Source: Candidatus Woesebacteria bacterium
GTDB taxonomy: Bacteria; Patescibacteriota; Microgenomatia; UBA1400; MFAQ01
Length of the DNA stretch: 64,000 nucleotides
Reading direction: 5' to 3'
Assembly: GCA_035389185.1 (NCBI GenBank)
Contig: DAOORK010000001.1
Location: 331,825-395,824, forward strand
A model generated the notes under the pieces. That model ran no database searches, was not told where the DNA came from, and worked only from the letters and a program-made list of their open reading frames with translations. Shown in pieces: positions 11,007 to 43,110 of the stretch (the stretch's first letter is position 1; every line of letters starts with the position of its first letter). Position numbers and translations under genes: made by a program.

Positions 11007-14000
11007 TATTTTTTTTGATAAACCTTAATTTCTCCCGAGTCGTAGATTTTGGTTAGAGATAAATCGTATGGATTAAGGGTAATTTTTTGTAAAGGTGTCT
11101 CGTAAACATATTTTATGTTATTTTTCTGCAAAAAGTTGTTGGCCCAGACTTTATCTTTGGTGTTGTAAAAACGTTGAATGTCTCTTATTCTCGATTGGTA
11201 CTGGAAACCGGTAATATCCAGGTTGATCGTGTCAGAAAGAAATTCAGGCTGGCCAGAAAGGGCGGAGATATATGCTGAGGAAACATAGGCATACAGAGGT
11301 TTGGGACCAGCAACCCAGTCAGCCTTAACATAAATTGGCGAAAGCACTACCCCTTTTTCTTTTGATTTGAGAGTATCTAAAGCTTTCATTTCCGGATAAC
11401 TGACTCGAGAGGGTGAGGTGTTTCCGAGATAGTCTTTTAGGGTACCGATTGACGTAAAGGTTGCTACTAGAAGAAACAGTGTTATCACAAAGACGGCGAT
11501 TGTTTTTGTTCGGAAACGAGAAAGGAGTCGAGATAGATACTCGGCAGTGAATAATCCCAGGAAAAATAGAGAATAATACATGAACTGTATCGTATTCCAA
11601 GGATTAATTTTTTGAGTGATAAATAGAGGCAAAACAATTCCCAATACGATGATTACAGAAACGATCTTTCGAGAGATGTCTGTGTTTTTGTCTTTGGCGA
11701 TGGAGAAAAAACCAAAAATCCGCATACCTAAGTTTCCAACAAGGAAGGCCAAGACAGAGAAAAGGTTTACTGCAAATAACTTAAGAAAATTCCCAGATGC
11801 CTCATAAGCTTGCCAAGCCTCAACAAACTTTGGCCAGTAAAAACGATCATATGAGGCGAAGAGACTACGAGGAAACCAAAGAGGATCGAAGATAAAAGGC
11901 GAACCTGAGAAGGAGGATAGAGGTAGTGTAATTAAAGCTCCGATAATGCCAACCACAATCAAGATCGAGAGACGTCTGGTAAACAAGAGGGCAAGACAAA
12001 GAAGAACAAAGGCATAGATTTTTGTTTGAGCAAGCAAACCACCCAAAAGAGCGAGTTTAATAAATTGAAGTGCTTTTATTTTCCCTTCTGAAGGAAGATT
12101 AAGTAAAAATAATAAGAGAAAAATAAGCGAAAGAGCATAAGGTGGATTAAGAAAAATTGAGGCAGATTGGTTGGCCCAGAAAGATGATTCTCCTGAGAAA
12201 ACATTTTGGCTGGTCAGTAGTTTGGGTATGAAGCCAAAAGAGCCGGCAAAGAAGACAAGAAGAAAGCCAAAAATCTTGGTGGTTTTTGAATAGTGCCATT
12301 TTTCCATTAAACGGTCTAAGAGGAAAACGAGGGCAAAGCAAAACAAAATGGGTAAAAAACGAAAATAAAGGGTGCTCGCCGGAATATTAAAGAACCATGA
12401 TAAAAGACCGGAAAAATAATCAAAAACAAAGTGATAGTTGGTCAATTTTTCACCGGCATACTGAGGATGAGAAAGGTCTAGCGGATTTTGAGAAAACTTT
12501 TCAATTAGTGAAAGATGAAAAATAGCATCATGGCCGTTGGGTCCAAAATACCCTTGACCAAAGGAAAAATTGAGACCATTACGAAATACAGTCAAACAAA
12601 CAATAAAGGCACAGAGAAAACCGAATAAAAGAGTTGAGGGTATTTTTGGTTTGCCTTTCTTGATAATTTTTTTGATAAGTAGAACCAGAAAAAAGAATAT
12701 TACAACCCAGAATAACCAAGAGTACTGAGCATAGTCTTTAAGTGGCGTGTGGGGACTTGCCTGCCAAGTAGTTTCTTGTTTATTGTTTAGTATTTTTATA
12801 TCAGCGGATTCAATGACAGGAGCCACGATATTGACGAATTTGATCGAGTCCGGTAGAAGATATATTTTTTGATTACCATTTTCCAGAGTTATTTGCCAGA
12901 GATCCCATTGTTTGTCATAGGTAGTTTTGAATTGAGAAAGATCAATATTGAGAGTAAGTTCCGATCCTGGTGTTTTGACCGAATCAATAATGGCTGGTAT
13001 TTCGGAATAAAGATCGGTTGTTTGATTGGGAACAGCAAAATAATCTTCATATATTTCCCGATTGTAGACGCGGAAATCAATTATCTGGGTTTGACCGTTA
13101 GCGGTCTTTAAGCCAATACGATAGCGATAACTTTGGTACCAGAACACCTCACCATTTTCCCTATTGGTGGAGTCTAGGGTTCGATAAAAGTATGTGGGGC
13201 TACTTTCCGGATAATAAGCTTTTACGATGTTCCCCAGCTCGGCTAAACTGACATACTCAAGATTATATTTTTCTCTATTTTTTTCCAGTAAACGATAAGT
13301 GCTGCTAATCTCTTTTTGATACAAATCAAGGCTGTAGTCATTTTCTAATCCCAGATTGATATGAGAAAGTTCATTGAATCCTTTCTGGGTATATTGAGCC
13401 AACAATTTTTCAAAATAGGTTGTATCAAGACCATAAGATAGATAATCATTAACCTGAACAGAGTAAGAAAATGCACCGGCTGTTCCGTAAAAGTTATAAA
13501 GGTCTCTTTGGGCCCATCGAACCATAATTAGGTTAATACGATTCTTAGCACTAGCGGCAGGGATCAATGAGTTATTTTTGTCCGGATAATAAGGACTGCC
13601 TACATAGCCTCCCCAAATGCGATAGTGATCGGTGCTGTATTGGTCATCGCAGTTCATAGCAGTAAGAATTGAGTATCTCGTTTGAAGATACTGAAGGGAA
13701 TAGCTATCAAGATCCCAAGCAGATACAGCAGTCGGATAAAAACCAAAACGATCAAAGAAAGCCTTCATATAAGTATCAATTAGTTTCAAACGATCTTTTT
13801 GGGAATAGCCGGATAAGAAAATACGATTGGGATTGGACATGTATGTTCCAGGTGGATAAACAACACCTGCTTGGGCGGTGAGGGATGGTGTGATTTCCAG
13901 AAAAGCTCCGAGAGATTGATTCTTGTCAGTTTCAAAGAGATCAGCGAAATAGGCTGAGATAGTAGCACTCGAAACTGCATCGAAACGGAGAAGCCAGGTA

Positions 14001-14200
14001 ACGGGATAAGCCGAATGAGTGGACTCTTGATACTGGAATCTAGGTAGATCCAGGGGTGTTTGATTTGGCTCTGACCAACCTTCATAACCTCTCACCGGAT
14101 TGGAAATAGTGACGAAGGCATTCTTTCCGAAAGCTAGTGTTGATTGAGGAAACAACAAAAGGATTAAGGGGACAAGTAGAGGAAGAAGTTTCTTAAACAT
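11006..14200 (-). CDS. Large fused envelope protein: signal peptide, ~500-aa extracytoplasmic domain, ~14-TM core and C-terminal domain (putative GT-C-like glycosyltransferase or polysaccharide polymerase)
   Basis: The ORF of up to 1096 aa probably starts at the internal Met (MFKKLLPLLVPLILLLFPQSTLAFG), which gives a classic signal peptide and avoids a 104-nt overlap with the flippase gene. The central region is very hydrophobic. A soluble C-terminal tail follows. Confidence 0.45.
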   Translation of the reverse strand: MFKKLLPLLVPLILLLFPQSTLAFGKNAFVTISNPVRGYEGWSEPNQTPLDLPRFQYQESTHSAYPVTWLLRFDAVSSATISAYFADLFETDKNQSLGAFLEITPSLTAQAGVVYPPGTYMSNPNRIFLSGYSQKDRLKLIDTYMKAFFDRFGFYPTAVSAWDLDSYSLQYLQTRYSILTAMNCDDQYSTDHYRIWGGYVGSPYYPDKNNSLIPAASAKNRINLIMVRWAQRDLYNFYGTAGAFSYSVQVNDYLSYGLDTTYFEKLLAQYTQKGFNELSHINLGLENDYSLDLYQKEISSTYRLLEKNREKYNLEYVSLAELGNIVKAYYPESSPTYFYRTLDSTNRENGEVFWYQSYRYRIGLKTANGQTQIIDFRVYNREIYEDYFAVPNQTTDLYSEIPAIIDSVKTPGSELTLNIDLSQFKTTYDKQWDLWQITLENGNQKIYLLPDSIKFVNIVAPVIESADIKILNNKQETTWQASPHTPLKDYAQYSWLFWVVIFFFLVLLIKKIIKKGKPKIPSTLLFGFLCAFIVCLTVFRNGLNFSFGQGYFGPNGHDAIFHLSLIEKFSQNPLDLSHPQYAGEKLTNYHFVFDYFSGLLSWFFNIPASTLYFRFLPILFCFALVFLLDRLMEKWHYSKTTKIFGFLLVFFAGSFGFIPKLLTSQNVFSGESSFWANQSASIFLNPPYALSLIFLLLFLLNLPSEGKIKALQFIKLALLGGLLAQTKIYAFVLLCLALLFTRRLSILIVVGIIGALITLPLSSFSGSPFIFDPLWFPRSLFASYDRFYWPKFVEAWQAYEASGNFLKLFAVNLFSVLAFLVGNLGMRIFGFFSIAKDKNTDISRKIVSVIIVLGIVLPLFITQKINPWNTIQFMYYSLFFLGLFTAEYLSRLLSRFRTKTIAVFVITLFLLVATFTSIGTLKDYLGNTSPSRVSYPEMKALDTLKSKEKGVVLSPIYVKADWVAGPKPLYAYVSSAYISALSGQPEFLSDTINLDITGFQYQSRIRDIQRFYNTKDKVWANNFLQKNNIKYVYETPLQKITLNPYDLSLTKIYDSGEIKVYQKK

Positions 14201-15677
14201 GTTTAATTTTAAAGTAGTTGATGGTGTTGGTGATAAAGGTAATGCCTTCAACAAGAATAATGGTACCAAAATAAATGGCCGCGGCAAAAACACCAATTAA
14301 GGTTAAACGTAAAACTGAGGTGCCATAGTGAGAAAGAATAGCCAGAAAACCACTCATAACTAGGGTTCCCAGTAAAGGCGTCTTGAGGATGCGCCAGAGA
14401 TTAAATTGAACATATTTACGAGCCATGAAGATTGTGACTATCGAAGATGTGGCAATAATGGCAACGGCGTAAGCAACACCTATGTAACCGTATTTAAGTG
14501 AGAGGAAGGGCATGGTAATCCAAGTCAAACCGGTCCACATGAGCATTAGTTTGAAAGTTGACTTGATGTGACCAGTGGCATTTAAGAGGTTGGTGAGACT
14601 GGTAGAAATACTGGCCCAGGCGGAGTTGTAGAGATAAATATATAAAGGAATAAGAGCGGGTAACCATTTGGTGTATTTGGGAATAATATCAACAAGAGGC
14701 GCGGCAAAGAAACCGAGACCGGCAAGAATTGGAAAAATAGCCAGACACATATATTTGAGACTAACTTCAACGGCACGAGCTAATTTTTCTTTATCATGCT
14801 GTAAACGAGCAAAGGTGGGAAAGGATACTTTGGTGAGGTTGTCCATGACAATTCTAAGTGGCAGGCCTGCCCACTTGCTGGCCCAACCAATATATCCTAG
14901 GCCGGTTGTGCCGATGATCTTGGTGAGAATAATGGTCATGCCATCATCTTTGAGAACTGACAGAAAAGTGTTTGCCTGATAAGGAACTCCAAACCTAAGT
15001 AATGATTTAAGAGACTGACGGTAAATACCAATGATTGGTTTCCAGGGATAAACAAGGTACATGGCGATTAGGCCAACGACTCCTCGACCCAGTACGGCGT
15101 AAGTAAAAGCGTTGATACCATATCCCTTCCAGGCGAAAAATACAGCAACAAAGTTGAAAACAAGAGTTTCAAGAATTTGAGGCAAAATTAATTTGTTGAA
15201 CTTAATCTCTCTTTCAAGCATGATAGAAGGAATGGTTTTGAGGGAACTTAAAAAGAGCGATATGCCCATGGCATAGAGTAGATATAGACCACTCTGATCC
15301 ATGTGGTAAGTAGTCTTAATAAAAGGACTGACGATAAATAAAACGAGTAAAAGCGACAAAACTAGAATCTGCTGAATTGAAAAAGTGGTAGCGAGATCCT
15401 CTTTGGTAATATTTTCTTTTTTTTGGATAAGAGCGGCGGCAAGACCAACATCAGAAAAGTAACCAAGAAAGTTAACTACGGAACTAACAAGATAATAAAC
15501 ACCATAGATATTGGGGTCGAGAAAAATTGTTAGAGCAAGGGTGGCAATAAAAGAAATAATTTGAATCACAAAAGTGCGAGAAATTAAGGCCAACACTCCC
15601 GATATTGAACGGCGTTTGACTTCTTGATACTCAAGTATTTCCTGATTGTCAGGGATGTCGTCGAGCATAAAGTGCAA
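14193..15677 (-). CDS. Oligosaccharide/polysaccharide flippase (Wzx-like, MOP superfamily)
   Basis: 494 aa with about 12-14 TM helices and the architecture and size of polysaccharide biosynthesis flippase family proteins. Confidence 0.65.
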   Translation of the reverse strand: MHFMLDDIPDNQEILEYQEVKRRSISGVLALISRTFVIQIISFIATLALTIFLDPNIYGVYYLVSSVVNFLGYFSDVGLAAALIQKKENITKEDLATTFSIQQILVLSLLLVLFIVSPFIKTTYHMDQSGLYLLYAMGISLFLSSLKTIPSIMLEREIKFNKLILPQILETLVFNFVAVFFAWKGYGINAFTYAVLGRGVVGLIAMYLVYPWKPIIGIYRQSLKSLLRFGVPYQANTFLSVLKDDGMTIILTKIIGTTGLGYIGWASKWAGLPLRIVMDNLTKVSFPTFARLQHDKEKLARAVEVSLKYMCLAIFPILAGLGFFAAPLVDIIPKYTKWLPALIPLYIYLYNSAWASISTSLTNLLNATGHIKSTFKLMLMWTGLTWITMPFLSLKYGYIGVAYAVAIIATSSIVTIFMARKYVQFNLWRILKTPLLGTLVMSGFLAILSHYGTSVLRLTLIGVFAAAIYFGTIILVEGITFITNTINYFKIKHV

Positions 15678-17361
15678 GTCTTAATAATATGAAGATGGAG
15701 CTAAGGGTAAGTAAATCAGAAAAAAGGCGAATGGGAGTGTAACCTATTTTAGCGTAAAGGGAGTGAGTCCCCTGAGGTACGGTAATGATAACCCGACCCA
15801 GGTCCGGATCGTAGGCAGAAGTCACTTTGTGCCCATCCATCTTAGTTACGAGTCCTGGAAAAGAGAAAAGCGGCAACATAATTTTGGCCGAAGAAGAAGA
15901 TACTTTGGCATCCAGTTTCATCCAGTTGGTACCAGAAACAAAGTTTTCTATACCCCCATAACCTTCAATATATTGAGGAATGGTGAAGGCCGGGTCCCCT
16001 GGAGGTGCAGCGGCGGTACGAGGTAAATAATCAAAAATTCCACTGGTAACTTGAAGTTCCCATTGACGCCCGGCCATTTTTTCGGCGAGAGAGACTCTTG
16101 TATGTCTCTCAACATGAAAGAAGGTTATATTGGTGAGAATAATACCCAGTGAGGCGATGACAAATAATAGAGGTTTTACTATTTTTGGAAGACGAAGCTT
16201 GGTAATATAACCAGCGGCTAAGGAGAAGTAAAAAACAATCAAGGCAACTAATCTCCAGGGAAATTGGGCATATTGTAATAAGGAGAGATGATCCCAGATA
16301 AAGAAAGAGCGACTATGAGTGAGAAAAGCATAAACAAAACCAAGGGCTGTGGCCATAAGAACCATCAGGGAGACTGTCTTGTCTTTTTTGAAACGAAAAA
16401 GAGCTATCAACGAAGCAATAAGGACAGCCGCAAGCTGTATTTGACCGACAGAAAAAGACATACCATCTTCGGGACCATAAGTTGAACCGCCATACCCCCA
16501 GAACCGAGAGAAAAAAAGCTGATTAATATCGGCATAGTGGGCCATAAAGTTGAAGTATCCGGAAATCATGGAATCGACATGGACATATTTTTGTTCGAGA
16601 ACTTCGGGAATAAAGAAAAAAGCAGATAAGCCAACTCCCAGAAGGCCAGAAAGAATGATCGGCTTTATCGTCGAGTATTTTTTTGTCCGCCATATCCAGA
16701 AAATTGCCCAAAGTAGAGCACTAGGTGCAAAAACCATGGTCATAACATTGTGAGACGTTAGCTGACCGGCAAGACAGACAGCAAAGAGAAGGAAATTTTT
16801 CCAAGAGAATTTTTTGACGATAAGGTTGTAAAGAAAAAGGAGTACAAAAGGAAACCAAACCATCCCCCAGGCTTCGTTTTGGGCTCCTCGGACATAGACA
16901 TCAACTGAGTGATATGGGGCATAAACATACAAAAGAGACGAAATAATACCTCCCCACTTGCCAAAAAATTCTTTGGCAAGGAGATACATTCCCCAACCAG
17001 ACATAAGAATAGAAAGAACAAACATAATTTTTACCGGCCAAAAGTAGCCAAGCCCCAGTAGAGTAAGCAGTTCCATAGGATAGTAAGGCATAGGAGGGTA
17101 AAACTGCATCAAAGGGTAACCATAACCATATCCCCCATCAGGAACCCAACGGCAGGGTATCTGACCGTCATGGATACACTTATCAAGTTCGTAGAGACGA
17201 AAAACCTGCATGTCATCATGCATCGTGAAGTAGCCAGGAGTGAGAAGGTCCTTAACAGCAGGTAGGAGAAGAATAAATAATAAAAGACCTACCCGATAAC
17301 GCCAGATTATTTTCCATAAGGAGGACAACTTGCCAGTAAAAGTAAACTTCATTGAGTTCAT
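15649..17361 (-). CDS. Polytopic membrane protein, putative GT-C-like glycosyltransferase (YfhO/PMT-like)
   Basis: 570 aa with an N-terminal TM helix, then an FTMHDDMQVF acidic loop, many TM helices and a C-terminal soluble domain. Confidence 0.4.
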   Translation of the reverse strand: MNSMKFTFTGKLSSLWKIIWRYRVGLLLFILLLPAVKDLLTPGYFTMHDDMQVFRLYELDKCIHDGQIPCRWVPDGGYGYGYPLMQFYPPMPYYPMELLTLLGLGYFWPVKIMFVLSILMSGWGMYLLAKEFFGKWGGIISSLLYVYAPYHSVDVYVRGAQNEAWGMVWFPFVLLFLYNLIVKKFSWKNFLLFAVCLAGQLTSHNVMTMVFAPSALLWAIFWIWRTKKYSTIKPIILSGLLGVGLSAFFFIPEVLEQKYVHVDSMISGYFNFMAHYADINQLFFSRFWGYGGSTYGPEDGMSFSVGQIQLAAVLIASLIALFRFKKDKTVSLMVLMATALGFVYAFLTHSRSFFIWDHLSLLQYAQFPWRLVALIVFYFSLAAGYITKLRLPKIVKPLLFVIASLGIILTNITFFHVERHTRVSLAEKMAGRQWELQVTSGIFDYLPRTAAAPPGDPAFTIPQYIEGYGGIENFVSGTNWMKLDAKVSSSSAKIMLPLFSFPGLVTKMDGHKVTSAYDPDLGRVIITVPQGTHSLYAKIGYTPIRLFSDLLTLSSIFILLRLALYARRHP

Positions 17362-18875
17362 TATAAAGAGTTTGGCAGGTAGAGGTAAAGTTGAAGTACC
17401 TCCTGAGAACCATCGGTGCGTGCTGGTTTGGGATATTCTTTAACAAGTTGTAAAGCATCCAAAGCTCCAGCGTTAAGATGATTCCGAGATTTATTGACAA
17501 TTAAAAAGCGTTCGTTTTCCGGAGAAGTATTGGCTAGGCCTTCAGGAATGGACCCAACGTAGGGACTTGAACCAACAACGGTGATGTTTTTGTGTCCGTT
17601 GGTGTAAATCTGAATACCGTCGGGAAGAGAACCAAAAAATCCTTCAGTAAAAGCAACTACCTTTTTACCTTGGCTTTCGAGATCGAGGAAATAGATGGCG
17701 ATTTCTTTCTGGCCCCAACCGGCAGTCCATTCTTCGAGATAACCGTTGCGCATGTCGAACGAAAGAGGGGCCCTTTCGGGATTAAATACACAAAAATAAG
17801 AAATGATCACCGGGACGACTAAAAGAATTATTGGGGACAATTTGATAAGAATCCCCTTGCGGCTGATGAGCCAGGACAAACCAAGCCCACAAAGAGGAAT
17901 TAGAGGATAAACAGCAAATAGGGCATATCTGCTTGTATAAACTTTGGCAATGGCGGCTTGACCGATTAGAGGAATCAAGGCAACCAAACAAAGAAAAAGA
18001 CCGGGCAAACGAGTTTTTTTGGGGAAGAAACTGAGAATTATGGCAACTAGGATAGAAGGAGTAAAAAGCAGCCAAAGCCAGTTAGCAGTGGTCTTTAAGT
18101 TACCGATGAGAGGACTAAGGGGATGACCCAGAACCTCTTTCCAGGTGAACAGATAATCTTGATTACGGGCACCAATCATTTCGAAAGCGGGTCCTAAACG
18201 AAGAATGGCATACATTGCTTGAGAGATAATTATGGCGGCCAGAAGACCGAGGGTTAAACTACCAAGATCACGAAGTTTGAGTTGCTTGAAAGGTGTAAAG
18301 CACAAGATGGAGACAACCAACCAGACATAGAAAAAGATGGCTGGTGACTTGGTGAGCATTCCACCCCCAAGTGCAAATCCAAGTAGCATAGCGTAATCCA
18401 ACCGACGGGTTTTGGCAAAGAAAATGGAGAAAACGAGAGACCAGACTCCAAACATGGCCAGAAGAGAGTCGGCAAGGGCCATCCGATCAAAAAAGACAGT
18501 ATAAGGCAAGGCTGAGTAAACAAGAGCTGTCAAAGCGGCAACAAGAACGTTACCAAAAAGTAGAAAGGCCAGAAGGGCAATACCTACAAGTGATCCAAAG
18601 CCGGCAACAACAGAAACCAAACGTCCGGCAACCAATGGATCAGAACTTATCTTAAAGAAAGGAACTGTGGCCCACATAAAAAACGGCTGTTTGCCATCAG
18701 TTTGGGGAATAAAACGAAGATTTGGTTCATTTTTGATGATTTGAGACCAGCGAACATAAATTGCTTCATCGACAAAAACGGGAATTTTGTTGAGTTGGGA
18801 GAGACGAAAGAAAAAGAAAGCAAAGATGGCAAGAAGAAAAATAGCGATTGTCAGTAATTTCTTATTTTTGGTCAT
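17361..18875 (-). CDS. GT-C fold membrane glycosyltransferase (GT39/GT83, PMT/ArnT-like)
   Basis: 504 aa. The motif FFFRLSQLNKIPVFVDEAIYVRW holds the DE motif in the first extracytoplasmic loop. Multiple TM helices follow. Confidence 0.65.
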   Translation of the reverse strand: MTKNKKLLTIAIFLLAIFAFFFFRLSQLNKIPVFVDEAIYVRWSQIIKNEPNLRFIPQTDGKQPFFMWATVPFFKISSDPLVAGRLVSVVAGFGSLVGIALLAFLLFGNVLVAALTALVYSALPYTVFFDRMALADSLLAMFGVWSLVFSIFFAKTRRLDYAMLLGFALGGGMLTKSPAIFFYVWLVVSILCFTPFKQLKLRDLGSLTLGLLAAIIISQAMYAILRLGPAFEMIGARNQDYLFTWKEVLGHPLSPLIGNLKTTANWLWLLFTPSILVAIILSFFPKKTRLPGLFLCLVALIPLIGQAAIAKVYTSRYALFAVYPLIPLCGLGLSWLISRKGILIKLSPIILLVVPVIISYFCVFNPERAPLSFDMRNGYLEEWTAGWGQKEIAIYFLDLESQGKKVVAFTEGFFGSLPDGIQIYTNGHKNITVVGSSPYVGSIPEGLANTSPENERFLIVNKSRNHLNAGALDALQLVKEYPKPARTDGSQEVLQLYLYLPNSL

Positions 18876-19623
18876 ACAATCCTTTGATGTCGTTTAATTT
18901 TACCTGGAGGATCTGCTTTAACATGTCCGTTGATTCCTTGATGAAGCGTTTATTCTTGTTGGTGGAGATATCTTCATCTTTCCAGGAAACATCGACCTCT
19001 TTTAGCTTGTAGCCATATTTTTCAGCAAGGAAGAGCAGTTCAACATCAAAAGCGGAGACGGTCCAACCCTTTGATTCTTTTTCTTCCTTTAAAACGGACA
19101 GTTTGGGGAAAATTTCTTTGGCCACTTTGGTTTTGAAAGACTTAAAACCACATTGAGTATCAGTGACATCACGAAGAAGGAAAAAACCTCTAATAAAACG
19201 GAAGCCCCAGGAGGTCAACTGGCGGTACCAAGGGAAGTTTTTTCTGGCTCGGCCACGAGAACCAAAAACGACATCAAAGCCTTCATCAAACCAAGGAAGA
19301 AGTTTTTCGACCTCTTTTAGGGGTGTGGATTGATCCATGTCTGCAAAAAGAACAATGTCGCCTTTGGCGGCCTTAATACCAGCCCAGACAGCTTTAGCTT
19401 TCCCCCCATGAAGGTTGGGCAGAACACGAAATCCCGAGTGACTGCGAGCATATTTTTCGGCATCTTCTCGACTACCATCGGTGGAACCGTCATCGCTGAT
19501 AAGCACTTCCCAAGCGTAGTCGGTTTTGTGGAGATAATGATTAACCTGATCCAGAACTCCCCTATCTAGGTTTTCTTTTTCGTTGAAGTTGGGAATAACG
19601 ATTGATAGTTTTGGATTGGCCAT
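18862..19623 (-). CDS. Polyprenol-phosphate glycosyltransferase (GT2; Dpm1/GtrB/ArnC-like)
   Basis: 253 aa with LSIVIPNFNEKENL...LISDDGSTDGS...LFADMDQSTP, typical of dolichol/undecaprenol-phosphate mannose or glucose synthases. Confidence 0.75.
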   Translation of the reverse strand: MANPKLSIVIPNFNEKENLDRGVLDQVNHYLHKTDYAWEVLISDDGSTDGSREDAEKYARSHSGFRVLPNLHGGKAKAVWAGIKAAKGDIVLFADMDQSTPLKEVEKLLPWFDEGFDVVFGSRGRARKNFPWYRQLTSWGFRFIRGFFLLRDVTDTQCGFKSFKTKVAKEIFPKLSVLKEEKESKGWTVSAFDVELLFLAEKYGYKLKEVDVSWKDEDISTNKNKRFIKESTDMLKQILQVKLNDIKGLYDQK

Positions 19624-19626
19624 AGT

Positions 19627-20163
19627 TTATTTGAAGACGGTGTCTCTGTAATATTTTAACTCATCGATTGATTCCAAAATATCATCGTGAGCCCGATGAG
19701 GTTCAACTTTAGAAAAAGGTTTGTTGTGAGGATACCAACGACCAGCAAGCTCTTTAATGGTAGAGACGTCAATAATACGATAGTGAACAAAATCAGCCAG
19801 CTTGGGCATCTGAATCCTAAGGAATTCCCGATCGATGTGGATAGAGTTGCCGGCAAAAAGAGCCGTGTTTTTGGGACAGTGTTTTTTGAGAAAAGAAAGA
19901 GTTTTTTCTTCTGCTTCGTCTGTGGATATTTTTGATTCATGAATTTCATTGAGAAGACCCGACTCGGCAAAATGTTCCTGGCACCAATCGTTAATTTTGT
20001 TCATCACTGAAGCCGGATGATGAATAACGATGTCTGGACCTTCGGCAACAACGTTTAGTTCGGCGTCGGAAATAATAGTCGCAATTTCAACAATTTTATC
20101 TTTTTCTGGATCAAGACCGGTCATCTCTAGATCAAGCCAGATGAGTTTACCGTTGGTAATCAT
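19627..20163 (-). CDS. orn: Oligoribonuclease (3'-5' exoribonuclease, DEDDh family)
   Basis: LIWLDLEMTGLDPEKDKIVEIA...HRAHDDILESIDELKYYR matches the Orn N-terminus and the DEDDh catalytic motifs. The start was moved to the internal Met (MITNGKLIW), consistent with Orn N-termini and with the upstream gene's stop at 20160. Confidence 0.85.
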   Translation of the reverse strand: MITNGKLIWLDLEMTGLDPEKDKIVEIATIISDAELNVVAEGPDIVIHHPASVMNKINDWCQEHFAESGLLNEIHESKISTDEAEEKTLSFLKKHCPKNTALFAGNSIHIDREFLRIQMPKLADFVHYRIIDVSTIKELAGRWYPHNKPFSKVEPHRAHDDILESIDELKYYRDTVFK

Positions 20164-21644
20164 TTGGAGTGAGCTAGTTGGTAGATTTTTAGATAATCGA
20201 TACTCCACTCGGAAACAATGTGTGATGGACCAAAGACCGCAATTTGCCATCCGGGGTTACCTTCAGGTTGGCATTTATCCCCATCTTCGCAGATTACAAA
20301 AAGCCAGTCGGTAATTCTCTCTTCCCCCCTAATGAGGTTGGCTTTTTTGTTTTCTAAGAAGTAACGATACGACTCGTCATAGTTTTGTTTGGCAATAAGA
20401 CCAAAATTGAAGGGCTCCCCTTTTGATTCTTTGATAATCAAGTCCGCAGCGGCTTCTGTACGTTGAAGCTGTCGATTGGGTTGGCCAAAGGTAGGACTAT
20501 ATCTTAAATTGACAAATAATAGGGCCAAAACAGTAAGAAGGGCTACGACTTTTAAGACAAAGCCTTTTCTGGAAAGGAAATAGCCGATTAGGGCACCGAG
20601 CAAAAGATACACTGCCGGGTAGATAAAGCCAAGGTAGTGAACATAAACATGCTGTTTGTAGATACTTAACCCAAAAATTCCGAAAGCAAGCCAGATATAA
20701 AGAAGCTTTAACTGGGGGCGCCATTTTGACTTGAAAAATATAAAAACGGACAATAAAAGAATTGCCACTGAGATAAGGGGAACACTAATATTCTGACGAG
20801 CCAGAACGAGATCGGTAACGGTGGTAATAATGACCGGAACAAAACGATCTGACTTGGTGGGATTGAGATTAACAGTGGTTTGACGATCGGTGAAGAATTT
20901 TTCGAAAGCGTGGAAATTCATACCTTGATGTTTGATATCAAAAAGAACAAGCGGTGACATAAGTACTAAAAACAAAGCAATGGCTAATAGGGTATTCTTG
21001 ACGAAATGTGAACGAAGAGTTTTGTCTTTTCTTATCCGGAGGAGAGAAATGAGCCAGAAAAAACCTAAAGTGGGAGCTAAAAGCAGACCGAGATAATGCA
21101 TTTGCAAAGCAAAGGCAAAAGAAACACCAACAATAGGCAACCAAAAATATTTTTTATTTTGCCAGACCTGATAGACTCCCCAAATACAAAGAAGGGCAAA
21201 AAGAGGCATAGGGTTGGGATTCCAAGAAGAGCGTGAATAAATTATGGCAACCGGAGAAACGGAGAATAAAGCCGCCGCAACCAAACCGGCACTTTTGTTG
21301 AACCAAGATCTACCAACAAACCAGGTAAGGCCGACGGTAAGAACTCCCAGTAGGGCAACCATAATAGCCGGACCGACTGGATTAAGATTAGACAAAAATA
21401 ACGCCGGGGCCATCATGTAGTAATAAAGCGGACCCAAGTACATGTTGCCAATACTAGTTTGAGGTCCGATGAAAACTAAGTTGCCTCTGGTAATAAGGTC
21501 ACGAACAATACGAACGTCGCGCCCTTCATCTCCCAAGAAAGTCATGAACTCACCAATGCGATATAGGCGCAAAAATAAGGCTAGACCAAGAATACCAATT
21601 AATATAAAGAACTCTAGACGATTTTTTTTGATCCAGTTGATCAT
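20160..21644 (-). CDS. GT-C fold membrane glycosyltransferase (GT39/GT83-like)
   Basis: 494 aa with the N-terminal loop FMTFLGDEGRDVRIVRDL (DE motif) and more than 10 TM helices. Confidence 0.65.
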   Translation of the reverse strand: MINWIKKNRLEFFILIGILGLALFLRLYRIGEFMTFLGDEGRDVRIVRDLITRGNLVFIGPQTSIGNMYLGPLYYYMMAPALFLSNLNPVGPAIMVALLGVLTVGLTWFVGRSWFNKSAGLVAAALFSVSPVAIIYSRSSWNPNPMPLFALLCIWGVYQVWQNKKYFWLPIVGVSFAFALQMHYLGLLLAPTLGFFWLISLLRIRKDKTLRSHFVKNTLLAIALFLVLMSPLVLFDIKHQGMNFHAFEKFFTDRQTTVNLNPTKSDRFVPVIITTVTDLVLARQNISVPLISVAILLLSVFIFFKSKWRPQLKLLYIWLAFGIFGLSIYKQHVYVHYLGFIYPAVYLLLGALIGYFLSRKGFVLKVVALLTVLALLFVNLRYSPTFGQPNRQLQRTEAAADLIIKESKGEPFNFGLIAKQNYDESYRYFLENKKANLIRGEERITDWLFVICEDGDKCQPEGNPGWQIAVFGPSHIVSEWSIDYLKIYQLAHSK

Positions 21645-22357
21645 TTGATTTTTAACCTGAGTCGGCCAAGGTCAATGAAACTTTGGATAATAACGTTTAG
21701 TTTGGCCCCAGTGGCCTCACCAAATTTACGAGGATAGTGATGAACTCCAATTTCAACAATCTTAAAACCTGCTTTTTTGGCTTTTATCAGAAACTCGGAA
21801 CTGATGAAAGCACCTCGCTCACTTTCCAAGTGAGGGATGGTGTCGACAACTTTTTTGGAAATTAGTTTGAAACCGCAGTCGATGTCCCGAACATTAAGAC
21901 CAAAAAGCAACCAGACAAAAAACTGCCAAATCTTTGAGTTCATTTTGCGAGTGAGATGTACTTTGCGGTCAAGGTAAAAACCAATAACCATGTCCGCACC
22001 GGTCTTTTTCTGGGTGTTTAGAAAATCAGTAATGTCTTTAAAGTTGAACTGACCGTCGGAGTCAATAAAAGAAATCCAGGGATATTTACAACCATAAAGA
22101 CCGCTTTTGAATGCGCCCCCATATCCCCGATTGGGATGGTGATGAATTACAGAGATACGTTTGTCTGCCTTGGCTAGTTTGTTGGCAATTTTGCCAGTGT
22201 TATCTTTGGAACCATCGTCGACAATAACGACTTCCCAAGTAGAGATATTTTTTTGGAGATTTTCAACTACGTTTTTGACCGTCCGCTCGAGATTGGCCTC
22301 CTCGTTGTATGCCGGCAAAAATACGGAGAGTTTATCTATTTGTCTCGCCATAATCAC
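21641..22357 (-). CDS. Polyprenol-phosphate glycosyltransferase (GT2; Dpm1/GtrB-like)
   Basis: 238 aa with LSVFLPAYNEEANL...VVIVDDGSKDNT...SFIDSDGQF motifs. Confidence 0.75.
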   Translation of the reverse strand: MIMARQIDKLSVFLPAYNEEANLERTVKNVVENLQKNISTWEVVIVDDGSKDNTGKIANKLAKADKRISVIHHHPNRGYGGAFKSGLYGCKYPWISFIDSDGQFNFKDITDFLNTQKKTGADMVIGFYLDRKVHLTRKMNSKIWQFFVWLLFGLNVRDIDCGFKLISKKVVDTIPHLESERGAFISSEFLIKAKKAGFKIVEIGVHHYPRKFGEATGAKLNVIIQSFIDLGRLRLKIK

Positions 22358-22377
22358 AAGTATATACTAAGAAGAAG

Positions 22378-23493
22378 ATGAAACGAGTTTATTTAGGCAT
22401 TGCCGTATTACTATTTTCCTTACTGGTTTGGTTACCTTTTGTTCTTAAGGTCAAATTGCCAGCCTGGGGTTTGGATTTTTCCGAAGGCACGAAAATTTTG
22501 TGGCAAAACTATGACGGACCAAATTATCTAATTGTGGCAAAAACTTGGTACAACAAAGCAGATATTCTTAACAAATTTTCAAATCCTCTGCCAGCGGAGT
22601 ATTATCCAGCTCACTTTCCTTTGTATCCGGCGATTATCTCGGTTTTTGATCAGTTCTTAAAAGGCCCAACGGCAATGTTGCTAAGCAGTCTTTTAGGTAC
22701 AGTCCTTTTGTATATCGTATTTTTCCGATATCTAACCCATTTTAAATTGAGTAAAAATCCACTTTGGGCATGTTTGGTCTTTTTGATATTACCTGCCAGA
22801 TGGATTGCTGTTCGTAGTGTTGGTTCTCCTGAACCATGGTTTTTACTTTTTGTAGTCACCAGTATCTTTTTTTTCCGTAAGGAAAAATACTGGATGGCAG
22901 GACTGTTTGGGTTGCTTGCTCAACTGACAAAAAGTCCGGCAATTATTTTATTGGGTGCGTACGGCATTTATGCCTTGGTGGAGTCGATCAAAAGCAAAAA
23001 AATTCAGTTTAAATACTGGCCATTGTTGATCCAAGCATTAGCCATTCCAGCCTTGTTCTGGTTTTATGGGATGCAGACCGGGGATTTTTGGGCATATTTC
23101 CACAGTGGTGACAATATTCATCTTTTTTGGCCTCCCTTTTCCGTGTTTACACCTTTGGGACAGCATTGGGTAAATAGTTTTTGGCTTGAAGATGTGATTT
23201 GGACTTGGTTAATTTTTGGCTTAGGAATATTAAAGCTTTGGGGGAAAAAGGCCAAAGTGGAGACATATTTTGCCGGATTATTTTTTCTATCCACTCTCTT
23301 TGTAGCTCATAGAGACATCAGTCGTTATATTCTTCCCATTGCCCCTTTTGTTTTGATTGGTTGGGACAACCTTATCCAAAAGAAAGAGTTCAAAATTATG
23401 TTGGGAATTCTTCTTATTCCAGTTATCTTGTATAGCTGGAACTTCATATTAAACAATATGGCTCCGGTAGCTGACTGGACACCGTACCTCTAA
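22378..23493 (+). CDS. Polytopic membrane protein (putative GtrC/GT-C-like glycan transferase)
   Basis: 371 aa with about 10 TM helices and no soluble domain. It is convergent with, and adjacent to, the GtrA-GtrB fusion gene. Confidence 0.35.
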   Translation: MKRVYLGIAVLLFSLLVWLPFVLKVKLPAWGLDFSEGTKILWQNYDGPNYLIVAKTWYNKADILNKFSNPLPAEYYPAHFPLYPAIISVFDQFLKGPTAMLLSSLLGTVLLYIVFFRYLTHFKLSKNPLWACLVFLILPARWIAVRSVGSPEPWFLLFVVTSIFFFRKEKYWMAGLFGLLAQLTKSPAIILLGAYGIYALVESIKSKKIQFKYWPLLIQALAIPALFWFYGMQTGDFWAYFHSGDNIHLFWPPFSVFTPLGQHWVNSFWLEDVIWTWLIFGLGILKLWGKKAKVETYFAGLFFLSTLFVAHRDISRYILPIAPFVLIGWDNLIQKKEFKIMLGILLIPVILYSWNFILNNMAPVADWTPYL

Positions 23494-23494
23494 T

Positions 23495-24649
23495 TTATTT
23501 TTTCTTTTTCCAGATGATGAGGTTGTACATCAACCAGTTGTAAGGCAGAACCAAGAAAACGATGATAAAGGGGAGCAACAGTTGACGATTGAGATGGGTG
23601 AGAGAGACAAGACCGGCGCCGGAAATTGTTTGGATAAGTAAGGCTCCGACAGAAGTAAGGTTGAACTGAAGAAATTTATTGATAGTAGCAATGACTCCGT
23701 GAATCTTGTCTGATTTGAAAGTCCAGAGATTGTTCCAGGTAAAGTTACTGATGATGGCCAGCTCGGTGCTTAAGAGCCAACTGAGCCATTCATTGTGTGT
23801 AAGATTGCTAAAAACGGCTAAGCCGATGGCATTAACAAGGTAACCGATAAAACCAACAGTACCAAACTTAACGAACTTTTGGGTACCTGGATCGTTCCAA
23901 CGAAGAAGGAAAACTGAACGAAAAATATCTTTGGCTGTTTTGGATTCGATTTTGGACTCACCTTTGGTACGAAGACCAAACTGTAGAGGAATTTCTTTGA
24001 CTTTGGCTCCAAGAGTAACCATTTTATAGAGGAACTCAAGTTTGTAACCAAAACTTCGGGAATAAAGATGGTCCATGTCCATGGTGTCCACAAAGCCCTT
24101 AACACGAGAGGCCTTGAGACCGGTTGTGGGATCTGTAATTTTGAAGAACATTTTTGTCGGAAAGAAAAGAACAAAACGGGCGACTAAACCACCAACTTCA
24201 CTAAAAAAGATGCGTTTGAAACCCCAACCCTTGGGGTTTGATCCCCCATCGATTTTTCGAGAACCCAAAACATAGTCATACCCTTTGGAGATTTCTTTTA
24301 ACAATACCGGTATGTCTTTGGGGGGATGTTGAAAGTCGGCATCAAATTCAATGATGACATCTGCCCCGAGAACTTTCATGGCGTGACGGAAACCTTTTAC
24401 ATAAGCACCACCGATACCGGCTTTGGTAGGATTAAGATAAAGATTGAGGTTTGGATACTCTTTTTGTTTTTTCTGAACAATTTTGTAGGTACCGTCGGGG
24501 GAGGTGTCATCAACAACAAGAAGTTTGCACTGCCAGTCGATTATCTTGGGAAATATTTTTCCACATAGAGTGTCGATCATCTTGCCAATGGTACCGGCTT
24601 CGTTGTAGGTCGGGATGACAACAACGGCAACAGGGAGTTTCTTCATCAT
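23495..24649 (-). CDS. Polyprenol-phosphate glycosyltransferase fused to a C-terminal GtrA-like membrane domain
   Basis: 384 aa. The N-terminal GT2 domain (VVVIPTYNEAGTI...LVVDDTSPDGT) is followed by four TM helices (KFVKFGTVGFIGYLVNAIGLAVF...), typical of the GtrA family. Confidence 0.7.
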   Translation of the reverse strand: MMKKLPVAVVVIPTYNEAGTIGKMIDTLCGKIFPKIIDWQCKLLVVDDTSPDGTYKIVQKKQKEYPNLNLYLNPTKAGIGGAYVKGFRHAMKVLGADVIIEFDADFQHPPKDIPVLLKEISKGYDYVLGSRKIDGGSNPKGWGFKRIFFSEVGGLVARFVLFFPTKMFFKITDPTTGLKASRVKGFVDTMDMDHLYSRSFGYKLEFLYKMVTLGAKVKEIPLQFGLRTKGESKIESKTAKDIFRSVFLLRWNDPGTQKFVKFGTVGFIGYLVNAIGLAVFSNLTHNEWLSWLLSTELAIISNFTWNNLWTFKSDKIHGVIATINKFLQFNLTSVGALLIQTISGAGLVSLTHLNRQLLLPFIIVFLVLPYNWLMYNLIIWKKKK

Positions 24650-24897
24650 ACTTTAGATTTTTTGTTATCTTGGCAATGACAGTTATCACACTCTCCGCAA
24701 CATTCATCGGCTTCGGTGGTGATTTCTTCTCGATTTTGCTTTTCATCGTACCAATAAAGTTTCTTTTCGTCTTCGTCAAGAGTTTTAATATGGGAACCAT
24801 CACAAAAGGGTTGTTTTTTGCTTAGTCCGCACATACAGATAAATTGATCCCCTACTTGCTGTGGACCGTGGGCGGTTTTTTGAACGAGTCTTGGCAT
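24646..24897 (-). CDS. CDGSH iron-sulfur domain protein
   Basis: 83 aa with CMCGLSKKQPFCDGSH (CDGSH signature) and a second Cys-rich stretch CCGECDNCHC. Confidence 0.7.
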   Translation of the reverse strand: MPRLVQKTAHGPQQVGDQFICMCGLSKKQPFCDGSHIKTLDEDEKKLYWYDEKQNREEITTEADECCGECDNCHCQDNKKSKV

Positions 24898-27674: not shown

Positions 27675-28437
27675 AATTTAAATCAATATCTATCAGTGAG
27701 TCCATCCACTTTAACTGTTGGGACTTAATTTTTTGGGCTGCTTCGGATTTTTCTGAAAAATAGTTCTCGCTTTCAATGTTGGCTAAATCCTCTTCAGAAA
27801 GAAGGGTGTTGGCCAGTTCGTCTATTGAAGCGTTGATACTTTTCCCAAGTTTTTGCAGATCCTCAATTTTTGTCTTTAAAGGAGTTGATATTGGTGTGGC
27901 AAGTTTTGGCAAAATAATATTAAGGGCGTTATCCATTTCTTGCTGGAAATGAACCAGTAAGGATAGTTTGTAAGCCACGACTCCAGCACGGGAACTGTGA
28001 TCGTGTTCGATAACGTTGGTGTTGTATTCTTGGGTAAAGTTTTTAAGATCGGCTGGGGTAGCAATTGATTGTGACTTTAGAGCTTCATTACTAAAAAAAT
28101 TCTTGGCCTTGGTGAGGGAGAAAATAATAGGGTCGATGTTTTTGTAATTTGCTTTAGTATTTTTTATCAGAGAAAGCAGGTACTCCGCGTAGTTTGATTT
28201 TGCCAGATCTCTGGCGGAAAGAGTTTCTTTGGCTGCCAAAATTGCTTTTTGCTGATTATCTAGTGTGGGGTTACTTATGTAATCGCTTTTAAGTAATTTG
28301 TATTCGATATATTTTCCTCGATAGAGACTATATTGATATTCGTAATCTGATTTGGCATCTGCCAAAACAGTCGTTGTCCCAAAACAAAAAAAGATAGATG
28401 GTAGTATAAGCAAAAGCAGCTTTGAAAAAAGCTTCAT
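27661..28437 (-). CDS. Hypothetical secreted protein
   Basis: 258 aa with a signal peptide (MKLFSKLLLLILPSIFFCFGTTTVLA) and helical composition. Confidence 0.4.
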   Translation of the reverse strand: MKLFSKLLLLILPSIFFCFGTTTVLADAKSDYEYQYSLYRGKYIEYKLLKSDYISNPTLDNQQKAILAAKETLSARDLAKSNYAEYLLSLIKNTKANYKNIDPIIFSLTKAKNFFSNEALKSQSIATPADLKNFTQEYNTNVIEHDHSSRAGVVAYKLSLLVHFQQEMDNALNIILPKLATPISTPLKTKIEDLQKLGKSINASIDELANTLLSEEDLANIESENYFSEKSEAAQKIKSQQLKWMDSLIDIDLNYAHS

Positions 28438-29333
28438 TACTTTAAGGATAACCCCTGACCGATAAGTATTTCAACCACAGTCTGCCAAGCAGAAAAATGA
28501 AGACCCAATTTTTTCTCGGTAGCAACTGTTTTTAGACCGCCAAAAACCGGGTAACGGCTTTTGTTGGTTTGGGTTGCTAGAAAGGTATGGATCGAAGAAG
28601 ATTTGATGACTGAAGGATCACCCCCAAGCTGATCGACCACGTAGGTAATTAATTCAAAGGGAGTTGTGGTATCGGAGCAACAGTGGAAGATACCAGTTTT
28701 TTCTGTATCGATAATTTTTTCCAGTGTCTGGGCAACTTCATCGATGAAGGCAATACAGATTTGCTGGTCATTGAACAGAGGATACATAGTTCCATCGACA
28801 TATTTTTTGACTGCGCCACGAATATAGTCTAGCTTGGCGTCAAACTGGGCACGGACGGGATAAATGATGCGAAGAATTGTACCTCCGTGGTTGAGGACCA
28901 CTTTTTCGGCACGATTTTTGGTCCAACCATACCAAGTGAGATTTTCGGGCGAGTCGGGAGTTTTATCGGTTTCAGAATAAGGACCGGGGTGTTCAACACT
29001 GCCAGGGAAAACCATGTCGGTACTGATGTGAATAATTTTTTTGGAAGGAAAAGCATTGACGAGATTTTCGGTACCTTCAACATTAATTTTCCAAGCGGGG
29101 CCAGTGTTATCCCCTGTTTGAGTTTCTGCGGCATTGACGTCGGTAAAAGCGGCAAAGTTTACAATCCATTCGGGATTAAACTTGTCAATGGCATTTTTAA
29201 CTGAGCTCGGGTCGGTAAGGTCAAATTCCGGATATTCGGGAGTGAAAAAATCGTATTTATTCTGGGCAAGTTCGATAAAGCGAGAACCAACAAGTCCTGA
29301 GGCTCCGGTGACTAAAACTTTTATTTTGTTCAT
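28437..29333 (-). CDS. rfbD: dTDP-4-dehydrorhamnose reductase
   Basis: 298 aa with KVLVTGASGLVGSRF, an NAD(P)-binding Rossmann fold and an HISTDMVF motif. It sits in an rfbABCD cluster. Confidence 0.75.
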   Translation of the reverse strand: MNKIKVLVTGASGLVGSRFIELAQNKYDFFTPEYPEFDLTDPSSVKNAIDKFNPEWIVNFAAFTDVNAAETQTGDNTGPAWKINVEGTENLVNAFPSKKIIHISTDMVFPGSVEHPGPYSETDKTPDSPENLTWYGWTKNRAEKVVLNHGGTILRIIYPVRAQFDAKLDYIRGAVKKYVDGTMYPLFNDQQICIAFIDEVAQTLEKIIDTEKTGIFHCCSDTTTPFELITYVVDQLGGDPSVIKSSSIHTFLATQTNKSRYPVFGGLKTVATEKKLGLHFSAWQTVVEILIGQGLSLK

Positions 29334-29336
29334 AGA

Positions 29337-29900: not shown

Positions 29901-29909
29901 TTTGTTTAA

Positions 29910-33762: not shown

Positions 33763-33769
33763 AAGACTA

Positions 33770-43109: not shown

Positions 43110-43110
43110 A

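Follow-up and report, generated by a model that had tools for sequence, protein, structure and literature searches.

Organization of the gene block

The DNA analyzed in this study, a 64,000-nucleotide stretch of Candidatus Woesebacteria contig DAOORK010000001.1 (hereafter the window), contains a conserved block of glycosyltransferase genes that probably specifies a transmembrane glycosylation system. An initial annotation had listed seven open reading frames (ORFs) in this block and described three modules in a row, each pairing a Dpm1/GtrB-like polyprenol-phosphate glycosyltransferase with a polytopic membrane protein, and had placed the gene orn between modules. All seven ORFs were present, and a family 2 glycosyltransferase (GT2) was confirmed to adjoin a polytopic membrane protein three times. 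The three GT2 synthases are designated GT2a, GT2b, and GT2c, and the adjoining membrane partners MEMa, MEMb, and MEMc. GT2a (18862-19623, minus strand; 253 aa) matched Pfam Glycos_transf_2 with an E-value of 9e-30, and MEMa (17361-18875, minus strand; 504 aa) scored above the Pfam gathering scores for PMT_2 and PMT. GT2b (21641-22357, minus strand; 238 aa) matched Glycos_transf_2 at E 3e-35; the NCBI gene call begins at the ATG at 22351, the probable start, and yields 236 aa. Its partner MEMb (20160-21644, minus strand; 494 aa) matched PMT_2 with 49.8 bits (cutoff 26.1) and PMT with 32.3 bits (cutoff 22.7). GT2c (23495-24649, minus strand; 384 aa) combined a Pfam GT2 domain (E 2e-25) with a C-terminal GtrA_DPMS_TM domain (E 7e-15), and MEMc (22378-23493, plus strand; 371 aa) had no Pfam match. 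A fourth membrane glycosyltransferase of fold class C (GT-C), of 570 aa, was encoded at 15649-17361 on the minus strand (PMT_2, 33.5 bits against a cutoff of 26.1), so that three of the four GT-C partners in the block belong to PMT_2/PMT in Pfam. As the initial annotation had proposed, orn, encoding oligoribonuclease, lies between modules; it most likely occupies 19627-20163 (minus strand; 178 aa, as in the public gene call) within a maximal ORF of 207 aa (19627-20250), and matched NF003765 with 239 bits against a cutoff of 106.

Every gene of the block except MEMc lies on the minus strand, and the junctions are tight. GT2a and MEMa overlap by 14 nt, and GT2b and MEMb by 4 nt; orn overlaps MEMb by 4 nt at the MEMb stop. 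The fourth GT-C gene lies directly downstream of MEMa with a 1-nt overlap, and it in turn overlaps a downstream gene for a Wzx flippase (14193-15677). GT2b and MEMc are divergent and 20-26 nt apart. GT2c and MEMc converge on each other with a 1-nt gap and therefore do not form one transcription unit. In the window (22352-22377) and in loci L003-L066, MEMc was always opposite in strand to its neighbours, and its start lay only 19-25 nt from the divergent GT2b start, so that the promoters of both directions must sit within coding sequence. A consensus promoter scan around the inverted MEMc gene, run together with a terminator scan, gave 10 promoter-like sites against 7.6 expected. GC content was flat across the region, at about 0.40-0.43. 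The conserved unit is mostly one operon and is bigger than three pairs, with four GT-Cs, the Wzx flippase, and a 1096-aa membrane protein. The three modules of the initial annotation were thus borne out as three synthases with adjoining GT-Cs, but the conserved unit holds four GT-Cs, and GT2c and MEMc are not co-transcribed.

GT2c has the architecture of a type-III DPMS

Sequence and profile comparisons identified GT2c as a predicted polyprenyl-phosphate sugar synthase with the architecture of a type-III dolichyl-phosphate mannose synthase (DPMS), namely a GT-A catalytic domain followed by a four-helix GtrA-like transmembrane (TM) domain. The DPMS of Pyrococcus furiosus (PDB 5mlz) matched GT2c with an E-value of 7e-44 when a single sequence was used and of 4.7e-58 when a profile of 22 orthologs was used. 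The alignment ran end to end and included the TM domain, with profile positions 7-379 aligned to chain residues 26-372 of 374. The match to GtrB (5ekp) was weak (E 3e-4 with the single sequence and E 1.4e-9 with the profile). The initial annotation had called GT2c a GtrB fused to GtrA; this description holds at the level of Pfam domains, but the protein is far nearer to type-III DPMS than to GtrB.

GT2c was then compared with the published definition of type-III DPMS (PMC12992685), and residue conservation was counted over 62 orthologs. In addition to the metal and diphosphate ligands, that definition comprises the ligands of the dolichyl phosphate (Dol-P) phosphate group, Arg117 (motif SRY), Arg131, Ser135, and Lys178 (motif KIL), two polar-pocket asparagines in the TM domain (Asn248 and Asn277), and a gating Phe338 in TM helix 4 (TMH4) (PMC12992685). 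The type-III motif DADxQHPP (x = L/F/Y) is present in GT2c as D103-A-D-F-Q-H-P-P110, in which D103, D105, Q107, and P110 were invariant, F106 was kept in 61 orthologs, and the middle residue was G, A, S, or V. S130-R131 of GT2c aligned with S116-R117 of DPMS, although the motif reads SRK rather than SRY, and R146 and S150 aligned with Arg131 and Ser135, respectively. The counterparts of Asn248 and Asn277 are N273 (61/62) and N302 (62/62). Overall, these counterparts were kept in 54 to 62 of the 62 orthologs. The correspondence was less clear in gapped parts of the alignment. Lys178 of DPMS was paired by HMMER with G201, in a gapped region where K203-L204, two residues downstream, is kept in 55 of the 62 orthologs. 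Arg341 of DPMS paired with P369, beside the invariant N371, where the alignment is locally gapped. The gating Phe338 found no match in GT2c; in the profile alignment it paired with L366, with F365 (45/62) adjacent, which is a weak negative given the local gaps.

By these comparisons, GT2c appears to possess the full architecture and most of the defining residues of type-III DPMS (P. furiosus, 5mlz; PMC5526996, PMC12992685), which is unusual in a bacterium; a structural study from 2026 knows type III solely from (hyperthermophilic) archaea (PMC12992685). GT2c differs from these enzymes in its bacterial origin, in having SRK for SRY, and in the pairing of Phe338 with Leu366 (next to F365), and its lipid would be a bacterial polyprenol rather than dolichol. 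The TM domain of type-III DPMS has been proposed as a possible flipper of the enzyme's own product (PMC12992685).

GT2a and GT2b resemble polyprenyl-phosphate glycosyltransferases

GT2a and GT2b are likewise related to polyprenyl-phosphate glycosyltransferases, and both are predicted GT2s of this type without TM segments. The best PDB matches of GT2a were DPMS (5mlz, E 1.3e-16), ArnC (2.6e-15), and GtrB (5ekp, 2.9e-12); that of GT2b was ArnC (9bhc, E 6e-17, with residues 4-221 aligned). For all three GT2s, the best relatives of solved structure were therefore polyprenyl-phosphate sugar synthases, which agrees with the role given to them in the initial annotation. Orthologs of both proteins kept the DxD motif, as D95xD97 in GT2a and D99xD101 in GT2b, and GT2a also kept G-S-R123, the counterpart of the phosphate-binding motif SRY of DPMS. 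In NCBIfam, the best scores of GT2a and GT2b were 59-72 bits against cutoffs of 370-529. GT2b matched ArnC (72 bits, cutoff 529), dolichyl-phosphate hexose transferase, and PpgS, all under cutoff, and PgfS was among the best matches of all three GT2s. Because GT2a and GT2b have no TM segment but are translationally coupled to their GT-C partners, they probably act while docked either to the membrane or to the partner.

The membrane partners are GT-C glycosyltransferases

The initial annotation had taken the membrane partners for GT-C-type transferases, for which a GT-C fold and a conserved acidic loop would be expected and homology to permeases would not. All of MEMa, MEMb, and MEMc were positive for the fold, each had the acidic residues (D36-E37, D39/D43, and D46, respectively), and no permease homology was seen among the partners. 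MEMa is an ArnT-like GT-C glycosyltransferase that carries an extracytoplasmic alpha/beta domain at its C-terminus, and ArnT was its closest structural match. MEMb is, from its profile matches, an ArnT/PMT_2-type GT-C glycosyltransferase translationally coupled to GT2b. MEMc is a small GT-C-fold glycosyltransferase of an uncharacterised family. When profiles were compared by hhalign, MEMa and MEMb aligned with a probability of 97.8% (E 1e-12, 375 columns), the 570-aa protein and MEMb with 97.6%, and MEMa and MEMc with 89.6%. Searches of the PDB by sequence with the three partners gave no matches, even with a MEMa profile. AftA, AftB, AftD, PimE, and Emb were among the structural matches of the GT-Cs.

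In each partner, an acidic residue that closely follows TM1 and is predicted to lie on the outer face was kept in at least 95% of orthologs. D36-E37 of MEMa (invariant in 40 homologues; 45 orthologs counted) directly follows TM1, modelled at residues 2-25, and the loop after TM1 was placed outside on account of the Lys-rich N-terminus. D39, R42, and D43 of MEMb, after TM1, were kept at this level among 58 orthologs, and H48-D49-D50 was conserved in the 570-aa protein. In MEMc, N44 and D46 (motif N[FY]DGPNY), between TM1 (2-23) and the next helix, were invariant in 41 homologues and kept at the same level among 79 orthologs. Fold, motif, and neighbourhood support the view that the partners would use lipid-phosphate-linked donors outside the membrane.

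The structural neighbours of MEMc were mostly mannosyltransferases dependent on dolichyl-phosphate mannose (Dol-P-Man) or polyprenyl-phosphate mannose (PPM), namely ALG12, GPI-MT-I, ALG3, ALG9, and PimE, at 8-15% identity; MEMc homologues carry the JGI label 'Gpi18-like mannosyltransferase'. A sub-threshold NCBIfam match was found to a 'cell surface glycopolymer formation' family, and nothing was found in the literature on NCBIfam family AZOBR_p60025. The MEMc family is small, with 143 representatives at E <=1e-30 among 1.84 billion cluster representatives. Long members of this family (674-706 aa) were considered as possible GT2-MEMc fusions of the Rosetta-stone kind and rejected, as they carry an N-terminal membrane/extracellular extension and no GT2. 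Among distant representatives (P0309, P0343, P0328, P0348), some (two besides the long members) have a C-terminal PA14 (carbohydrate-binding) domain and others an N-terminal extension of ~300 aa with a TM segment; none is fused to a GT2.

Conservation and history of the block

The conservation of the block was assessed in a scan with one genome per species, which recovered 80 Microgenomates loci (labelled Collier-, Woese-, or Shapirobacteria, and relatives), 43 of which had enough flanking sequence. MEMa, GT2a, MEMb, GT2b, MEMc (plus strand), and GT2c occurred in the same order and orientation in 37 of these 43 loci, with MEMc identity down to about 43%, so that both the synteny and the threefold GT2/membrane protein adjacency noted initially are strongly conserved. 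Among the 37 complete blocks, the fourth GT-C was found in all 37, an adjacent trmD in 29, and Wzx in 22. The gene overlaps recurred as well, with modal values of -14 nt for GT2a/MEMa and of -19 or -4 nt for GT2b/MEMb; those between MEMa and the 570-aa GT-C and between the latter and Wzx (modal at -23 nt) also recurred across loci. The block persisted in relatives in which the Rml genes described below are not adjacent.

The pairwise comparison proposed in the initial annotation, duplication versus acquisition, pointed to neither as a recent event. GT2a, GT2b, and GT2c of the window are 25-31% identical to one another, MEMa, MEMb, and MEMc are mutually undetectable by BLASTP, and the three GT2 orthogroups separate cleanly (57-63% identity within, 23-27% between); together these values rule out recent tandem duplication. 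A horizontally acquired island is disfavoured by the flat GC content and by the conserved synteny with trmD and the Rml genes. From the orthogroup divergence and the conserved block, it follows that the modules split before these lineages did and are neither recent duplicates nor recent imports. Modules a and b have gene order, coupling, and family in common and could stem from a very old duplication; module c is unlike them in family, architecture, and orientation. The orn gene is lineage-specific. It was present in 19 of 19 blocks with MEMc identity of >=64% and in 0 of 18 at <=59%, for which a single late, lineage-specific insertion into the operon is the simplest explanation.

The MEMc-GT2c gap was variable across loci (median, 481 nt) and was in some cases occupied by a methyltransferase gene or by one for a further GT-C. 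Loci of the Shapirobacteria type (L060, 11058-13851) have a methyltransferase in this gap; L060 also encodes, just upstream of GT2c, a short-chain dehydrogenase/reductase resembling GDP-mannose-4,6-dehydratase (gmd, 193 bits, under cutoff), which might give a clue to the donor sugar. Some records of metagenome-assembled genomes labelled Pseudomonadales, Gammaproteobacteria, Spirochaetia, or Bathyarchaeia (L003, L004, L010-L012, L046, and others) hold the block at 45-80% identity; given that the block is of the Microgenomates type, these labels look wrong or the bins contaminated.

The surrounding locus

The block lies within a wider glycosylation locus spanning 473-31991. The Wzx/MOP-family flippase gene (minus strand; Polysacc_synt_3, E 1.4e-51; MOP flippase NF007773, E 8e-37, below cutoff) is followed in the operon by a gene for a 1096-aa polytopic membrane protein (11006-14296, minus strand), and this by a further GT2 gene (10089-11006). 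The Wzx protein is a candidate translocase of a lipid-linked glycan or of lipid-phosphate sugars. The N-terminal part of the 1096-aa protein is large and extracytoplasmic, and its C-terminal half contains about 12 hydrophobic segments; the protein gave no match in Pfam, NCBIfam, or PDB. It was considered as a fifth GT-C and rejected, there being no profile similarity to the GT-C partners. At least three further GT-C paralogs lie nearer the start of the window, at 1364-3163 (minus strand), 3931-5463, and 8312-9862. The second is a MEMb paralog (profile E 6e-24). The first of these is of the PMT_2 type with a C-terminal MecA_N/NTF2-like domain, an unusual combination; domains of this type are found at the N-terminus of PBP2a. 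Genes for RmlD, RmlC, RmlB, and a long-form RmlA, which serve dTDP-rhamnose synthesis, occupy 28437-31991 on the minus strand (Pfam RmlD_sub_bind, dTDP_sugar_isom, GDP_Man_Dehyd/Epimerase, and NTP_transferase); RmlA scored 342.7 bits against the TIGR01208 (rmlA_long) cutoff of 320. The wider locus encodes four generic or rhamnosyltransferase-like GT2s, one GT1, and one methyltransferase, and the window in total contains 7 GT2 genes and at least 7 GT-C genes.

Directly upstream of GT2c, with a 4-nt overlap, lies a gene for a CDGSH iron-sulfur protein (24646-24897, minus strand; zf-CDGSH, E 1e-8), which adjoins GT2c in about 21 related loci and has no evident link to glycosylation. A sortase and, next to it, an 865-aa protein that contains DUF4215 and a SpaA-like domain of the prealbumin fold (33187-37293, minus strand) constitute a Gram-positive-type surface protein/pilin system, a possible target of glycosylation. 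At 40996-43803 (minus strand), an FtsE/FtsX pair is followed by a PcsB-like coiled-coil protein with a C39-like peptidase, an arrangement that resembles a cell-division hydrolase module.

Proposed function and alternative explanations

The component families and folds, the catalytic-type motifs, the gene order, and the coupling were established directly. Taken together, these data suggested that the block probably encodes a transmembrane glycosylation system with multiple components, consisting of three lipid-phosphate-sugar synthases and four GT-Cs. In the proposed mechanism, the three GT-A-fold GT2s would work at the cytoplasmic face, each moving one sugar from a nucleotide sugar onto polyprenyl phosphate. 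The lipid-phosphate sugars would then be flipped outward, for which the GtrA-like TM domain of GT2c (for its own product) and the Wzx protein of the operon are candidates. Finally, the four GT-Cs (MEMc, MEMb, MEMa, and the 570-aa PMT_2 protein) would pass the sugars to extracytoplasmic acceptors via the acidic residue after TM1. The likeliest acceptor would be a rhamnose-containing surface glycopolymer made by the surrounding locus, with surface proteins as the alternative.

Several findings weigh against this interpretation. No TM or hydrophobic segment was found in GT2a or GT2b, and no small membrane partner of the DPM3, GacJ, or Rv3632 type is encoded beside them, where neighbouring genes abut or overlap; for these reasons, we infer their lipid-phosphate acceptor from homology and context. 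None of the three GT2s reached an NCBIfam equivalog cutoff, so that NCBIfam assigns them no sugar specificity. A profile built from the TM domain of GT2c detected no stand-alone GtrA in the 64-kb window. The GT-Cs, with four in the block and at least seven in the window, exceed the three synthases, and one-to-one modules are therefore an idealisation. Moreover, GT2c and MEMc are convergent and often separated in relatives, so that only the conserved neighbourhood argues for their pairing, and a MEMc homologue stood solitary in an unrelated context in 5 of the 43 genomes. The pairing of donors with GT-Cs, the route of flipping, the sugars, and the final acceptors are likewise inferred, and the modules may serve three different sugars or acceptors, as the initial annotation had suggested.

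Other explanations were considered. The GT-Cs might be protein O-glycosyltransferases, comparable to actinobacterial Ppm1/Pmt or streptococcal PgfS/PgfM, that act on secreted, surface-layer, pilin, or sortase-anchored proteins, and not on a wall glycopolymer, with the same donor chemistry. The PMT and PMT_2 matches of MEMa and MEMb, the PgfS matches of the GT2s, the sortase and SpaA-like protein 10 kb away, and the retention of the block where the Rml genes are not adjacent would all suit such a role, and we regard it as possible although somewhat unlikely: the best structural match of MEMa is ArnT, an enzyme with a lipid acceptor, and not a PMT; the loop-5 MIR domain of eukaryotic PMTs is absent; and the operon runs on into Wzx within a rhamnose-glycan locus. 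Fold similarity does not separate the acceptor classes. It is also conceivable that many GT-Cs assemble a glycan or lipoglycan step by step on the outside of the membrane, drawing on three lipid-phosphate-sugar donors, instead of adding single side-chain decorations. An analogue exists in mycobacteria, where PimE, MptA/B, Aft, and Emb enzymes use PPM and decaprenyl-phosphate arabinose (DPA) in the synthesis of lipomannan/lipoarabinomannan and arabinogalactan. Such stepwise assembly accords with the surplus of GT-Cs over synthases (four in the block, at least seven in 24 kb), with the mycobacterial enzymes AftA, AftB, AftD, PimE, and Emb among the structural matches, with the PA14 domain of some MEMc-family members, and with the deep conservation of the block, as expected of an essential envelope component. 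We nevertheless consider it doubtful, for the cytoplasmic GT2s and GT1 together with Wzx fit a conventional repeat unit linked to lipid diphosphate (lipid-PP), and polymerising and decorating GT-Cs are not distinguishable by sequence.

A further explanation would confine the synthesis of lipid-phosphate monosaccharides to GT2c, with GT2a and GT2b being ordinary cytoplasmic extenders of a lipid-PP-oligosaccharide and the GT-Cs acting en bloc as enzymes of the ligase or oligosaccharyltransferase type. The missing TM segments of GT2a and GT2b, their scores under every NCBIfam cutoff, and the Wzx gene in the operon could be accommodated in this way. However, GT2a and GT2b have only polyprenyl-phosphate synthases as their best solved relatives, aligned over the whole soluble domain, and synthases without TM segments do exist, such as GacI, whose partner in the membrane is GacJ (PMC8035078). 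The window's remaining four GT2s, which resemble rhamnosyl or exopolysaccharide transferases, are only distant kin of GT2a, GT2b, and GT2c. MEMa, in addition, is most like ArnT and lacks the large C-terminal domain with the WWDXG motif of oligosaccharyltransferases, and we judge this explanation improbable. As for incidental adjacency, in which GT2 and GT-C genes would merely crowd in a glycosylation island without specific functional pairing, some adjacency is expected given the numbers of GT2 genes (7) and GT-C genes (at least 7) in the window. Yet this kind of adjacency to GT-Cs is confined to the three DPMS/ArnC-like GT2s, and order, orientation, and codon overlaps are kept in 37 of 43 genomes over the range of MEMc identity given above, so that chance crowding is hardly credible. 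A transmembrane glycosylation system fed by three lipid-phosphate-sugar synthases thus remains our preferred interpretation. The combined and bolder proposal, a near-essential, Microgenomates-wide extracytoplasmic assembly line of at least four GT-Cs in which GT2c, as a bacterial type-III DPMS, would make a lipid-phosphate sugar and also flip it through the enzyme's conserved, Asn-lined TM pocket, is put forward only tentatively, as we think it rather unlikely to hold in full.

Comparison with known systems

In the general scheme described for such systems, a GT-A enzyme makes the polyprenyl-phosphate sugar, a GtrA- or Wzx-type protein flips it, and a GT-C transfers the sugar outside; this scheme also covers the TM-less synthase GacI with GacJ and the Wzx-type flippase GacK (PMC8035078). 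Three GT-A/GT-C pairs per genome are known from Lactococcus lactis (CsdAB, CsdCD, and CsdEF) and Bacillus subtilis (CsbB-YfhO, YkcBC, and YkoST) (PMC8035078). The Gram-positive systems (CsbB/GtcA/YfhO, GtlA/GtlB, CsdAB/CsdCD/CsdEF with CflA, and GacI-GacJ/GacK/GacL) resemble the present block in combining a GT2 synthase with a polytopic GT-C that bears an acidic outer-loop motif, in using a GtrA- or Wzx-type flippase, and in often occurring as several pairs per genome (PMC8035078). GacIJKL of Streptococcus pyogenes shares with the block a rhamnose-polysaccharide locus, a TM-less synthase, and Wzx (PMC8035078). Here, by contrast, three synthases and four GT-Cs occupy one conserved block rather than dispersed pairs, GT2a and GT2b have neither TM segments nor an adjacent small partner, a stand-alone GtrA is missing, one synthase belongs to the DPMS type of archaea, and the host is an uncultured bacterium of the Candidate Phyla Radiation (CPR).

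Similar likenesses and differences were seen with other systems. The undecaprenyl-phosphate-L-Ara4FN synthase ArnC is the nearest solved relative of GT2b, and in the lipid A Ara4N transferase ArnT (GT83), as in MEMa, the TM region is followed by a small extracytoplasmic domain at the C-terminus. However, arnA, arnB, arnD, arnE, and arnF genes are absent here, and GT2b lacks the two TM helices of ArnC. The GtrABC module of serotype conversion in phages and Shigella comprises a separate GtrA flippase, a GtrB carrying two TM helices at its C-terminus, and a serotype-specific GtrC that is co-transcribed, and it is usually prophage-borne. The logic is the same, and GT2c joins GtrB-type GT2 and GtrA domains at the Pfam level. 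Nevertheless, the block is chromosomal and vertically conserved and is not phage-borne, GtrA occurs as a fused domain only, the GT2c synthase is DPMS-like, and the GT-C gene is convergent on the opposite strand, so that the likening of module c to GtrABC in the initial annotation was not upheld. MEMc shares its structural neighbourhood with the Ppm1/Pmt, PimE, and MptA/B systems and with the eukaryotic ALG3/9/12 and PIG-M/PIG-V, and it adjoins a DPMS-like synthase; it is, however, only 8-15% identical to these Dol-P-Man-dependent GT-Cs and has no Pfam membership. A literature search on GT-C or mannosyltransferase systems in CPR/Patescibacteria found nothing relevant. Each of the families and the overall logic were already known; what is unusual is their dense clustering in a deeply conserved CPR block, together with two synthases that have neither a TM anchor nor a visible small partner and a bacterial protein that fits most of the type-III DPMS definition.

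Significance

To our knowledge, CPR bacteria have not been cultured, and hardly anything is known of the chemistry of their envelope. The block, present across Collier-, Woese-, and Shapirobacteria-type genomes, offers a concrete gene set for surface glycans that probably mediate host attachment and phage recognition. With three donor synthases and four GT-Cs in one unit, it is also a compact system in which to study the donor and acceptor specificity of GT-Cs. As GT2c keeps both of the asparagines proposed to bind the flipped product, it would provide an independent test of the idea of a self-flipping synthase. If GT2c is indeed a bacterial type-III DPMS, this would extend a class known only from hyperthermophilic archaea to mesophilic CPR bacteria, and it would hint that some of the envelope machinery of CPR bacteria came from archaea.

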